Shown: in pieces, positions 27,001 to 30,000 of the stretch | How the letters are laid out: every line of letters starts with the position of its first letter | How positions within the stretch are numbered: position 1 is the first letter of the stretch | DNA from: Escherichia coli O157:H7 | Lineage (GTDB): Bacteria > Pseudomonadota > Gammaproteobacteria > Enterobacterales > Enterobacteriaceae | Assembly: GCF_013167455.1 (NCBI RefSeq) | Contig: NZ_CP038328.1 | Strand: one strand, 5' to 3' | DNA: 64,000 bases | Program-made: the position numbers

Positions 27001-30000
27001 AGGAAGGTGCGGCTGATGATGTTCAGTGGTGCAGCTTCAGAAAATCCCTGCCGTGGATTGAGGGGCATGATATTCCGTCAATGGCGTGGGAATTTGCTCA
27101 GGGCGTTCTGACCTGTGAAACCGTTTATGTGGTGGCTGAAGTTGATGAGCAGGCCATGAAAGAAGGCGTGCCCCAGTTTGTGATGGCGTATATCGACATA
27201 CGCCTGGGTGTCATTATCTGCGGTTTAAGCGGCTGGAATATCACCTCGCGCGTTCTGCGTTACCTGATTGTTGACCGGACGGCCGCGCCTGCTGGGATAT
27301 CTGCGGAGGTGGCGTAATGTTCTTTAAAACATCAAACCCTTCCGCGCTGGCCGCGTGGCAAAAATATCAGCAGGACTGCCAGAAAGTTAAGGATGAGGCA
27401 AAACGCCTTGAGGCCGTGCTGAATGTTGCGTGCCGGTCGGTATTTGTATCCGGTATCAGTGGCTTTTGTTTTAAAGGGCTGCGCTTTATGGATGACAAAT
27501 ATCCTTTTCATCGCGACTTATGGCGAAAACCGACTGCGTCGAATGGCTGGAGCTGCACACCGCGCACATCACGTATTCCCAAAGCCCTGCGCGTTGCCTC
27601 TGACGAACTTAACAGTCTGTGGCGTGAATATTCGCCCGTCACGTATGCCAGAACCGATGCACTGTTGTTCTGGCTGGGTATTGATTTCTCGGCAATCATG
27701 TTTGGCCCTGTGAAGTGGTTCTGCGTTGACGATGTGATTTACCTTGAGTGCGGCGTAAAACCCGCAAATCAGAAAATGACCGAAATTCTGTCTGATGAGT
27801 TTTATGCTGCTGAAAAGCGAGTCAGGGGGTGATGTATGATGATTTTACAACCCATGGGGCGAAAAGGTCAGGCACCTGCTCATGTCCGTGCGTGGACACC
27901 TGAAGAAGATGCGCTGCTGATTGCGCTTTATCCATCCACCCCGGTTAAGGATATTGCTGTCAGGGTAAAAAGAAGTTTCTGGGGTGTACATAACCGGATT
28001 GTTTTATTACGCGGTACTTACCCGGAGTTGCTCAAATGCAAACGTCCAAGATTTAAACATGATGAAGATAAATTTATCCGAAAAAATGCCAGAACGATGA
28101 CCGGTAAGCAAATAGGAGAATATCTGGGGCGAGACCGGGATTCTGTCCACAATCGGGCGCGATATATTGGCGTAAGCATGAAAAAATACGGAGAATTGCT
28201 GCCCTTCACCCGTATACCTGACGATGATGTTCATCTTATTCGTGAATTACGGGATGCTGAATCACCACGACGTCTTACCTTCCGGGAAATAGGCGAGAAA
28301 TTTGAATTATCCGAGAGTACGGTGAATTTTATTTATCACCATCGCCGGACTGCCGAGGACGCTGTATTACGGGAGTTAACGCCATGATAAAGAGACTTGT
28401 ATTTTTCGCAATTTTCGTTCCGGTGTTGGGGGTTGGTTTTATATTTGCGATTACAGGAAACCTGTCCATGATGCCAGATATTTGGTTCTTTATCAGGATG
28501 TCGCTCTTCCTGTTTATTATGAATCTTCTTATCGACATATATATCCGTATTACTGGAAAACATAAATGAGAAAAATCACGTCCTTGTCAGAGTTACAGGA
28601 GATGAATATGAGTATTGAATTAAGATCGTCTTATGAGTATCGCAAATTTCTTATCGCCGGAGGCATGAAACCGGAAGATGTGGAAAAAATCGTTTCTTTT
28701 ATGGATAAGGAATGTGATAAGCGGGATGTGTCAGAAATTATTATGGATGACATGATTCTGGATTCAGTCGTGGCGTTAAGTCCGTTATGGATTGTGCATT
28801 CTCTTGCGGAAATTGCCAAAGGCACCGATAAACAGGCAGCTGTTGCTGCCCTTCAGACGCTTAATGAAATGCGTATATCTCCACGCCCGACATTAATACA
28901 GATGATTTTGTCCAGTATGGAGGATAAAGCAAATGAATAGTCTACCCGCTGGATGGGCGCGCCCTCTGATGGCTAAGAAGCATCATTTTTTTAAAACTGG
29001 CGATAATATCAGTATATGTAGGCGGTGGTTATATCTGGCTCATAATCGCGAGCCGGATACATTTGAAAGCCCTGATGACTGTGCCGAATGTCGCAGAAGA
29101 CTGAATAAGGAGAAAGATAATGGACAGTAGTTCGCAGTTGTTCTGGTGTTTATATATCACATCGTTTTTCGGTGCATTCGTCATTACACGATGGCTGTGC
29201 CGGAAAGTTATCAGTATTTTTCATAAAAAATACCTGATTGGGCTGGCGGCGACTTCTCTGATTAATGCACTTGCCAGATATCATAAGGGGGAATACTACT
29301 CAAGAATAAAAACTGATGATGGTTTTAATATTTTTGTGATTCCTCCGGAGTATCGGGTTCAGCTCGATCGGGAAAGTAATATCTATCATATCAGCAGGAG
29401 TGTTGATACAGCATGAGAGGGAAACTGATATCCGCTATTCATGTGGCAAAGCGCGAGCTTGCCCTAGATGATGAGACCTACACATTCGTACTACTGGCAG
29501 CCACCGGCAAAACCAGCTGCCGGGATATGTCACCCGGTGAGTTATCCCGCGTGCTGGATGTTTTCAAAAAACGCGGTTTTAAAGTGCGTCAGAAACCGGT
29601 TAACCGGGCCTTAAAACCGGGTACGGTGACCGCCAAAATTCGCGCCATCTGGAAAGTGATGCACCGGCAGGGCTTTATCTCTGATGGTGCGGAAACCGCT
29701 CTTAACCGCTGGGTGAAATCGCAGACGGCCGCGCAGAACGGCGGCGAAGGTGTGGCAAACTGGCAGTGGCTGGAGCAACACCCCGCCCTGGCCTCAGATG
29801 TGCTGGAGCGTCTCAAGCGATGGCACCGCCGCAAAATGCTGGCCGCGATGGGAATGCCCGAACGCACGCTGATGGGGTATGACGCCGTTTGCAGGCAGTA
29901 TGAAAAATCACTTCCCCGTTAACCCCAAATCCCGCCACAACGCGGGATTTTTATTTTAAACTTACCGGGAACGCGAGAACCGGAGGCTGATATGGCAGAA

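Follow-up and report, generated by a model that had tools for sequence, protein, structure and literature searches.

Between the gam-containing early genes and the gemA and mor genes of a Mu-like prophage in Escherichia coli O157:H7 lies a run of small co-oriented open reading frames set in AT-rich DNA. The locus belongs to a 64,000-nucleotide stretch of contig NZ_CP038328.1 (RefSeq assembly GCF_013167455.1), which we call the window. An original prediction, made by eye, held that this run was acquired late and is a candidate accessory or anti-defence module. The locus therefore raises the question of whether the frames are genes, whether they arrived as a unit, and what they might do. We favor, with a probability of roughly 0.75, the reading that the block is a variable accessory-gene slot in a Mu-like prophage of the Sp18 type, located in the semi-essential early (SEE) region and equivalent to gp13-gp15 of phage Mu.

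Gene layout of the block

ORF calling in the window places five co-oriented ORFs on the + strand at positions 27836-29416, inside the prophage early operon, with the coordinates that had been proposed for the run between gam and gemA/mor. ORF1 (27836-28387), ORF2 (28384-28569), ORF4 (28933-29130) and ORF5 (29120-29416) encode proteins of 183, 61, 65 and 98 amino acids, respectively; ORF3 occupies 28608-28940 (110 amino acids), or 28566-28940 (124 amino acids) when read from an upstream start. The left conserved flank is a homologue of Mu gp12 on the + strand (27317-27832, 54% amino acid identity by BLASTP), directly preceded by a gp11 homologue (26784-27317, 67% identity to Mu gp11 by BLASTP), and gam lies upstream (25610-26140, 57% identity). 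On the right, the conserved flank is gemA (29413-29922, + strand, 43% identity to Mu GemA), annotated by PGAP as a "gp16 family protein", with mor (29992-30417) downstream of it. Gene order is kept relative to Mu, and the block shares its strand and early operon with the homologues of A, B, gam and gemA.

Every one of the five ORFs is a PGAP gene call with its own Shine-Dalgarno sequence and a PHROG family match. Overlaps amount to 4 nt for ORF1/ORF2, 8 nt for ORF3/ORF4 (with either ORF3 start), 11 nt for ORF4/ORF5 and 4 nt for ORF5/gemA. The proposal that all five ORFs are translationally coupled agrees with these overlaps, but it fails between ORF2 and ORF3. The true start of ORF3 is most likely 28608, yielding 110 amino acids, because this start is the PGAP call and has an AGGAG Shine-Dalgarno sequence, and because homology to other alleles sets in at 28595. 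The two frames would consequently be separated by 38 nt and would not be coupled.

Inside the block, no promoter-like or terminator-like site was found on the + strand by a consensus scan, a crude method whose site counts do not exceed shuffled expectation. The sole + strand terminator-like site within 27000-30600 is a hairpin just past gemA (29927-29950, a 9-bp stem with a T-run), which is a pattern match only. Given the crudeness of the scan, the block may hold a weak internal promoter that is active in lysogens. Rfam searches of 19000-40000 returned no match, repeats in 27300-30000 comprise nothing beyond short two-copy matches, and an inverted-repeat search left the prophage ends undefined.

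Purifying selection acts on ORF1, ORF3 and ORF4, for which dN/dS lies between 0.10 and 0.13 (ORF1, 0.13; ORF3, 0.125), and reading frames are preserved in alleles that are 93-95% identical at the DNA level. A dN/dS of about 0.1 marks these as real genes. It is very improbable that some of the small ORFs are merely chance open frames in AT-rich DNA, an idea for which ORF2 offers the opening: it is short, matches phrog_19804 only marginally (1e-5), and has no relatives beyond the lineage. The gene calls, Shine-Dalgarno sequences and PHROG matches of all five ORFs, together with the selection and frame conservation just described, argue against it.

Base composition and cassette exchange

Sliding-window GC and GC3 calculations bear out the impression that the block is richer in AT than the rest of the prophage. 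Its GC content is 0.424 (42.4%), whereas the prophage at 21000-52000 has 0.549 (54.9%) and the early genes upstream of the block have 0.513; GC3 is 0.40-0.44 versus 0.53-0.63 in gp11, gp12, gemA, mor and lys. The block is the lowest-GC stretch of its length: among 3432 prophage windows of 1581 bp, just 10 are as low, all of which overlap it (z = -2.8). ORF1 is intermediate at 0.46, and the truly AT-rich part is 28384-29416 (0.405). Across all cassette arrangements among 25 related loci, GC in the slot ranges from 0.41 to 0.47, and in Mu and SfMu the same slot has values of 0.47 and 0.46, respectively, where the flanks are at 0.53-0.55. Since Mu and SfMu also have the dip, it marks the slot and not one recent event. 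Low GC is thus a standing property of the slot, irrespective of its content.

Of 5426 complete E. coli genomes, about 231 carry a prophage of this lineage, and flank and block were each found at 274 places in E. coli genomes. The block diverges more than its flanks. Identity of the upstream flank reaches 95% or more in 214 of 233 records; that of the block is 90-95% in 158 of 232, and no more than 142 records span at least 80% of the block. The stretch from ORF1 to gemA exists in at least six cassette arrangements among the 25 related loci, delimited by sharp recombination junctions, and slot content differs even between prophages that are otherwise 95-100% identical; annotated genomes likewise contain alternative cassettes. 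ORF1 is retained in 25 of 25 loci, and the four genes that follow it reassort independently. Eight of the loci have the arrangements X-gp13-gp14-gp15 or X-ORF5b, which lack ORF3 and ORF4; in certain sister prophages, genes resembling gp13, gp14 and gp15 of Mu occupy the slot instead.

BLASTN places cassette junctions at 28393, 28595 and approximately 29437. The first two delimit an exchangeable cassette represented here by ORF2 and elsewhere by genes of phrog_6925 and phrog_6158. At about 29228, DNA homology to the other ORF5 allele ends, and both ORF5 alleles are found paired with either upstream cassette set. At the left edge, comparison with one related locus (L002) shows 0 differences over 513 nt of gp12 and 32 over 549 nt of ORF1 directly downstream, a step that places a further recombination junction at 27833-27835.

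These comparisons support an accessory and mosaic character for the block, which varies among Mu-like genomes and sits in the slot of Mu gp13-gp15. Its composition differs from that of the rest of the prophage, and its genes are not universally conserved housekeeping genes. The suggestion of later acquisition holds to the extent that the content is accessory and horizontally exchanged; it does not hold for a single recent five-gene unit, as ORF1 is present in all members of the lineage.

Features and relatives of the five proteins

The protein features that had been read from the block were recovered, namely three repeats in ORF1, two hydrophobic segments in ORF2, an acidic ORF3, cysteines in ORF4 and an N-terminal anchor in ORF5. 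The accompanying statement that none of the ORFs resembles a nameable protein proved wrong for three of them: ORF1 corresponds to Mu gp9/E8, ORF3 to SfMu ORF14 and ORF4 to ORF85 of the Pbunavirus phage 14-1.

ORF1 (pI 9.9) carries a W/F-x-x-E/D-E-D-hydrophobic motif three times, near residues 20, 72 and 126, with repeats 1 and 2 being 28% identical. It matches phrog_323 ("transcriptional regulator, D5-like") at 6e-59, as does Mu gp9 at 5e-29, and its residues 66-168 pair with Mu gp9/E8 over the entire length of the latter at 30% identity (E 2e-8). Over its full length, the protein is 35% identical to a "DNA binding protein" of the P2-like Citrobacter phage Shae_phiSM. Pfam matches to helix-turn-helix (HTH) families are sub-threshold (AsnC-type, 0.021; sigma70 r4, 0.041; Myb, 0.62), and PADLOC gives a marginal match to a homing-endonuclease DNA-binding domain (E 0.008). 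ORF1 is probably a sequence-specific DNA-binding protein with three Myb/SANT-like HTH repeats. It likely represents an expanded relative of Mu gp9/E8 that is fixed in the lineage, and no gp9 homologue is present upstream of gam in this prophage. Mu gp9/E8 and SfMu gp09 belong to the same PHROG and are likewise early-operon genes. However, Mu gp9 has 99 amino acids and is encoded upstream of gam, whereas ORF1 has an additional N-terminal repeat and lies downstream of gp12. To our knowledge, the function of Mu gp9 has not been established.

Two of the proteins have features of membrane proteins. ORF2 (pI 10.4), with hydrophobic segments at residues 1-30 and 32-58, is predicted to be an inner-membrane peptide that forms a two-TM hairpin; among 50,697 phage records, the Mu-like insert of LC727881 was the only one to contain it. 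ORF5 (pI 9.2) has a hydrophobic 17-mer at residues 7-23 (KD 1.85) and is likely tethered to the membrane through this N-terminal anchor, with a C-terminal domain that, judged by the positive-inside tendency, is probably cytoplasmic. ORF5 matches phrog_17269 at 9e-66 and was found in E. coli Mu-like prophages only; all six matches in a large-database search come from E. coli. Its two alleles are about 50% identical, sharing 27 of 30 N-terminal residues and 22 of the remaining 68. For this allele pair dN/dS is 0.18 with saturated dS, which gives no sign of positive selection.

ORF3 (pI 4.8, or more exactly 4.85) has 21 D/E against 15 K/R residues, for a net charge of about -6, and is predicted to be a soluble all-alpha protein of six helices. 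It matches phrog_1988 at 5e-44 and is 36% identical to gp14 (ORF14) of SfMu, which is located in the equivalent slot. On a Mu-like contig, a distant homologue (P0027) is encoded two genes upstream of GemA/Mor. An exhaustive search of 1.84 billion representatives yielded 11 relatives, and a word-indexed search 13 matches; the family is likely specific to Mu-like phages. An AlphaFold2 model of low confidence (pLDDT 65) had no meaningful Foldseek match in the PDB. A DNA mimic similar to Ocr or ArdA was considered for ORF3 and rejected in view of its charge and helical prediction. A 124-amino-acid gene upstream of the ORF4 homologue in a Klebsiella phage was also considered as a relative of ORF3, and similarity was absent.

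ORF4 (pI 9.0) is distributed more widely and occurs in numerous unrelated phages. Among 19 sequences with identities down to 40%, His18 is invariant, and His17, Cys29, Cys50 and Cys53 are each present in at least 90%. The His/Cys3 set is a probable metal site, although no match to a zinc ribbon, zinc finger or treble clef fold was found. Homologues are encoded in about 290 Pseudomonas Pbunavirus genomes, nearly all those of this genus, and in Pantoea phages; in a Salmonella Mu-like prophage the homologue lies directly upstream of gemA, and in the Klebsiella phage it overlaps a DNA methyltransferase gene. A large-database search gave 17 enterobacterial matches, none with a Pfam domain. The neighbors of the distant ORF3 and ORF4 homologues fall almost entirely into PHROGs of "unknown function".

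Searches for functional relatives were otherwise negative. Comparison with PHROGs, Pfam, NCBIfam, PADLOC and the PDB linked none of the five ORFs to an established defence, anti-defence, anti-restriction or anti-CRISPR family. Nothing rose above threshold in Pfam (searched with ORF1, ORF3, ORF4 and ORF5), NCBIfam or PADLOC, whose defence-system models gave zero matches to ORF2-ORF5. PDB sequences produced no significant match to ORF1, ORF3, ORF4 or ORF5, and fold matches were lacking for ORF3 and ORF4. The block peptides do not occur in the supplements of two accessory-gene screens, their accession numbers are cited nowhere in the literature, and no ORF is a homologue of Mu gp7/gnarl2 or another characterized accessory gene.

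Possible functions and comparison with known phages

If the slot operates as its counterpart in Mu does, the block genes would be silent in the lysogen, would be made within the long early transcript upon induction or infection, and would be dispensable for transposition-replication. Their products might then target the host cell or competitors and have no part in virion production. One specific possibility, which we regard as tentative, is that at least one of ORF2-ORF5 inhibits host immunity (restriction-modification, abortive infection or signalling) early in the lytic cycle. Location, mosaicism, small gene size and AT-richness all fit the pattern of counter-defence "accessory regions", and a counter-defence phenotype was found for another SEE gene of Mu, E6/Mup07, also called gnarl2 (bioRxiv 10.1101/2023.04.06.535777). 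The 50% identity of ORF5 alleles built on a conserved anchor would be expected of a protein that tracks a variable partner, and the methyltransferase overlap of the Klebsiella ORF4 homologue points in the same direction. On the other hand, the ORF5 alleles bear no mark of positive selection, the mild acidity of ORF3 is not the profile of a DNA mimic, and neither the family databases (PHROGs, Pfam, NCBIfam and PDB) nor the two screens contain a similar protein; the anti-defence label stems from location, which argues for it weakly. A still more elaborate version, in which ORF4 is a broadly used host-takeover or counter-defence factor, ORF5 is its specificity-variable partner or a second effector, and both combine with ORF2 and ORF3 into an early anti-host arsenal, is unlikely.

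Some of the genes may be more integral than "accessory" implies, because ORF1 is invariable and because ORF3 and ORF4 adjoin gemA in distant phages. It is conceivable, if somewhat doubtful, that ORF1 replaces Mu gp9 and that ORF3 and ORF4 are partners of the gem/late-switch module, giving the block early functions together with GemA or in replication. The constancy of ORF1 in the lineage, its PHROG shared with gp9 of Mu and SfMu, and the missing gp9 upstream of gam would all be accommodated, as would homologues of ORF3 and ORF4 no more than two genes upstream of gemA in SfMu, the distant Mu-like contig and the Salmonella prophage. Such a role is harder to reconcile with the loss of ORF3 and ORF4 from 8 of 25 loci and from Mu, or with the abundance of ORF4 in Pbunavirus, where GemA was not found in the 3.9 kb around ORF85. 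The predicted membrane segments of ORF2 and ORF5, their restriction to the lineage, and the exchange of ORF2 for unrelated cassettes could also suit Kil-like or Sie-like proteins that block superinfection or that arrest or depolarize the host. Classical superinfection exclusion genes, however, are expressed from the prophage, whereas this block lies in a repressed early operon with no promoter of its own detected by the consensus scan, and neither ORF2 nor ORF5 is homologous to a known Sie, Imm, Cor or holin family; we consider this role improbable.

An accessory-gene slot at this position is unsurprising in itself, because variability of the SEE region is textbook knowledge and prophages of this type are common in STEC. 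The practical gain is a precise map, missing from the annotations, with one fixed gene (ORF1), exchangeable cassettes, their junctions, and cassettes that turn up again in distant phages. ORF4 most deserves further study, since its conservation extends from temperate Mu-like phages to virulent Pbunavirus phages that are used in therapy, and ORF5 is next because it has two alleles. Roles for ORF4 and ORF5 would help to explain how transposable phages take over their hosts, and possibly differences in host range among STEC prophages.

The closest parallel to the block is the gp13-gp14-gp15 slot of Mu. The SEE region of Mu is variable and poorly conserved, and this slot has the same position between gp12 and gemA, the same operon context and the same GC dip. 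The slot examined here is about twice as long as that of Mu and begins with a putative DNA-binding gene, which Mu does not have there, and ORF1-ORF5 have no homology to Mu gp13, gp14 or gp15. ORF14 of SfMu lies among Mu-type gp13, gp14 and gp15 genes, unlike ORF3; it was described as unique to SfMu and absent from Mu and D108, with no function given (PMC4406740). For ORF4, the counterpart is ORF85 (phrog_2358) of Pseudomonas phage 14-1, which is 45% identical, has the GW..P motif, a His and three Cys in common with it, and is likewise surrounded by a series of small early-type ORFs. Pbunavirus is nevertheless a different genus of virulent myoviruses, as opposed to the temperate Mu-like prophage that carries ORF4, and TBLASTN of the 3.9-kb locus detected no GemA near ORF85.

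At the level of the whole prophage, the same lineage is present in many O157:H7 genomes. Its likeness to Sp18, the Mu-like prophage of O157:H7 Sakai, is drawn through Sp18-like phages: Mu-like inserts in Stx phages of STEC CC119, which are described as resembling Sp18 (PMC10132054), share 93-95% identity with the block, and the copy here is nested in another prophage, as in that study. More generally, the block has the hallmarks of phage "accessory regions", in which conserved flanks enclose variable small genes that are AT-rich and horizontally exchanged (bioRxiv 10.1101/2023.04.06.535777).

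Position and coding content of the block

By its annotated genes, the element around the block is a transposable prophage of the Mu type: a repressor, a ner-like HTH gene, transposase A and AAA+ B are followed by small ORFs, Gam, further small ORFs, GemA, Mor and then lysis and head genes. BLASTP comparisons with Mu give identities of 57% for Gam (25610–26140), 67% for gp11 (26784–27317), 54% for gp12 (27317–27832), 43% for GemA (29413–29922) and 26% for Mor (29992–30417). Because Mu homologues flank it on both sides, the block (27836–29416) fills the place of Mu gp13, gp14 and the reverse-strand gp15. 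It belongs to the distal portion of the semi-essential early (SEE) region, which is long, poorly conserved and codes for small proteins of uncharacterized function (PMC8705779).

Among phage records, the only close DNA matches are Mu-like inserts in Stx phages of STEC CC119 (93.5% and 95.0%). These inserts reportedly resemble Sp18 of O157:H7 Sakai and often reside within other mobile elements (PMC10132054), and Sp18 is regarded as an intact Mu-like prophage (PMC2669165). The present prophage also appears to be nested within another prophage, probably lambdoid (18836–20160; positions 1–1325 of sequence L001), which parallels the location of its closest phage-database matches inside Stx phages. 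Directly left of the Mu-type repressor gene (20161–20745, − strand), the annotation shows an ‘exonuclease’ gene and, with a truncated C-terminus, a DUF4224 gene (19745–19888). The exact Mu ends were not defined by an inverted-repeat search.

As originally predicted, the block comprises five ORFs in the same orientation, all on the + strand: ORF1 (27836–28387), ORF2 (28384–28569), ORF3 (28566–28940 as first stated), ORF4 (28933–29130) and ORF5 (29120–29416). The accompanying descriptions of their products (three HTH-like repeats, two transmembrane segments, acidic, Cys-containing and N-terminally anchored, respectively) were essentially correct. The proposed translational coupling is plausible at the other junctions, which overlap by 4–11 nt, but not for ORF2 and ORF3. 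To judge from an ATG with an AGGAG Shine-Dalgarno sequence, the PGAP start and homology to other alleles from 28595, ORF3 almost certainly begins at 28608, giving 110 aa and no overlap with ORF2. Each of the five is preceded by a ribosome-binding site of its own, has a PGAP call and matches a PHROG family. Values for dN/dS between alleles (0.13 for ORF1, 0.125 for ORF3 and 0.10 for ORF4) are comparable to that of gemA (0.11). By these sequence criteria, all five are real genes.

The block is also AT-richer than its surroundings, as had been judged by eye, with a GC content of 42.4% versus 54.9% for the whole prophage (21000–52000) and 51.3% for the upstream early genes. Only 10 of 3432 equal-length prophage windows are as AT-rich, and all 10 overlap the block. 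Third-position GC is 0.40–0.44 in ORF1 to ORF5, compared with 0.53–0.63 in the adjacent genes for gp11, gp12, GemA, Mor and lysozyme. Within the block, ORF1 is intermediate (0.46), and the ORF2–ORF5 part has 40.5% GC.

Exchange of gene content between conserved flanks

The prophage lineage is present in approximately 231 of 5426 complete E. coli genomes. Identity is at least 95% in 214 of 233 records for the upstream flank and in 201 of 231 for gemA-mor, versus 48 of 232 for the block, for which another 158 fall between 90 and 95%; only 142 records cover at least 80% of it. The upstream flank and the block were each found in 274 places, and ORF1 is therefore always present. In strain 2015C-3121, a 110-aa form of the first of these genes, then gp13-like and gp14-like genes of Mu type and finally a reverse-strand gene replace ORF2–ORF5, and in strain 2018-166 ORF5 alone differs. 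Cassette junctions were located by BLASTN at 28393, 28595 and about 29437, with one more near 29228, within ORF5. A further junction lies at the gp12/ORF1 boundary: relative to the related locus L002, gp12 has no differences in 513 nt, whereas ORF1, which begins three bases later, has 32 in 549 nt.

ORF1 is found in all members of a catalogue of 25 loci, drawn from five E. coli genomes and IMG/VR contigs. With the ORF5 alleles (5a and 5b) counted as distinct, seven layouts occur between ORF1 and gemA: ORF2-3-4-5a, ORF2-3-4-5b, X-Y-3-4-5a, X-Y-3-4-5b, X-gp13-gp14-gp15(rev), X-5b and X-Y-3-?, where X and Y denote replacement cassettes. GC content is 41–47% in every arrangement. The homologous slot is likewise GC-poor in Mu (0.47, versus 0.53 in gp11/gp12 and 0.55 in gemA) and in the Shigella phage SfMu (0.46), and thus AT-richness is a standing property of this recombination slot. 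The suggestion of later acquisition holds insofar as the arrangements and junctions reveal accessory, horizontally exchanged content between conserved flanks, but the block is not one recent five-gene acquisition.

The same early operon carries further exchangeable low-GC cassettes at 24254–24481, 25028–25598 and 26238–26780, and the ORFs at 24254–24481 (GC 0.417) and 25278–25598 (GC 0.430) match the block in AT-richness. In place of the 180-aa gene at 26238–26780, strain 2015C-3121 and SfMu carry a DUF5420 gene that is distantly related to it (23% identity). Weak similarity to Kil of Mu (33% over 39 aa) is seen in the ORF at 24482–24748 only. In the late region, a stretch at ∼52200–54000 ranks second-lowest in GC within the prophage (about 0.43–0.45) and may be a tail-fibre or invertible host-range segment, such as has been reported for Sp18 (PMC2669165).

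Properties of the five products

ORF1 is basic (pI 9.9) and carries three copies of a (W/F)xx(E/D)ED-hydrophobic motif spaced about 53 residues apart. It belongs to phrog_323 (‘transcriptional regulator, D5-like’; 6e-59), as do Mu gp9/E8 and SfMu gp09. Mu gp9 aligns to repeats 2–3 (30% identity, E 2e-8), and upstream of gam the prophage lacks a gp9 homologue. The P2-like Citrobacter phage Shae_phiSM carries a full-length ORF1 homologue (35%) among its early-operon genes, partial matches fall in the DNA-binding portions of mycobacteriophage HNH/homing-endonuclease ORFs, and Pfam HTH matches are sub-threshold. ORF1 probably binds DNA.

ORF2, which has two hydrophobic segments and a marginal PHROG match, occurs in this prophage lineage only. 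The acidic ORF3 (pI 4.8) belongs to a tiny family, with 11 matches among 1.84 billion representatives, that is positionally faithful. SfMu gp14 (36% identity), which the SfMu paper mentions only for its absence from Mu and D108 (PMC4406740), occupies the same slot, and in a distant Mu-like contig a homologue with 27–30% identity is found two genes upstream of GemA/Mor. An AlphaFold2 model of ORF3 has six helices at low confidence and yielded no fold match. The acidity of ORF3 is too weak for a DNA mimic.

ORF4 is the most widespread of the five, being present in 316 phage records, 289 of them from Pseudomonas phages; ORF85 of Pseudomonas phage 14-1 is 45% identical. Homologues also occur in one Pantoea phage and, with 67% identity, in another Mu-like prophage, of Salmonella, where the gene overlaps the gemA start. 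In Klebsiella phage vB_Ko_K70PH128C1 (64%), the stop codon of the homologue and the start of a DNA methyltransferase gene overlap (L009 2992–3958). That Klebsiella locus also encodes a second methyltransferase and a ‘D5-like’ regulator of the phrog_323 type, the family of ORF1, a single case of ORF1-like and ORF4-like genes beside DNA-modification genes. Residues G7, W8, P11, H18, F20 and W32 are invariant in the ORF4 family, and H17, C29, C50 and C53 nearly so. ORF4 has three cysteines, and the conserved residues suggest a His/Cys3 metal site.

ORF5 has a hydrophobic stretch at residues 7–23 and is confined to E. coli Mu-like prophages. Its two alleles share 27 of 30 N-terminal anchor residues and only 22 of the remaining 68, and each occurs with either upstream cassette set. 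Saturated dS and a dN/dS of 0.18 indicate old, separately maintained alleles rather than measurable positive selection.

Expression and probable role

Inside the block, neither promoter-like nor terminator-like sites occur on the + strand, and there is no Rfam match and no meaningful repeat. The first terminator-like hairpin, a strong one, comes after gemA and before mor (29927–29950; 9-bp stem, five G-C pairs, T-run). If functional, it would split mor from the early transcript or make its expression dependent on read-through, whereas gemA and mor of Mu overlap. By analogy with Mu, we infer that the block genes stay silent in the lysogen and that the long early transcript carries them after derepression. 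Elsewhere in the prophage, RefSeq places a ‘tRNA-OTHER’ on the − strand at 37622–37701 (L001 18787–18866), flanked by the genes for the minor head protein and virion morphogenesis. ARAGORN detects no tRNA in the whole window, and Rfam reports nothing in 19000–40000; the call is possibly spurious or degenerate.

The best-supported reading makes the block a slot for accessory genes within the SEE region. At its head is the lineage-fixed ORF1, with a probable DNA-binding product, and behind it are exchangeable cassettes; the products of the slot would act on the host cell or competitors and not in virion production. There is some support for the view that ORF1, ORF3 and ORF4 are more integral than accessory, as each is either constant or holds a conserved place beside gemA; however, ORF3 and ORF4 are missing from close relatives and from Mu itself. 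That slots of this kind hold counter-defence genes is a reasonable idea in general: accessory regions are enriched in such genes, and a counter-defence phenotype is described for E6/Mup07 (gnarl2), a different gene of the Mu SEE region (bioRxiv 10.1101/2023.04.06.535777). For the present five genes it is suggested by location only and is less likely than not. None of the five ORFs matches a known defence system in PADLOC, and searches of PHROGs, Pfam, NCBIfam and the PDB gave no match to a known family of anti-restriction, anti-CRISPR or other anti-defence proteins. The leads most worth pursuing by experiment are ORF4 and, with its two alleles, ORF5. In a prophage common among STEC, the block is a new, well-delimited example of an established type of phage hot spot.
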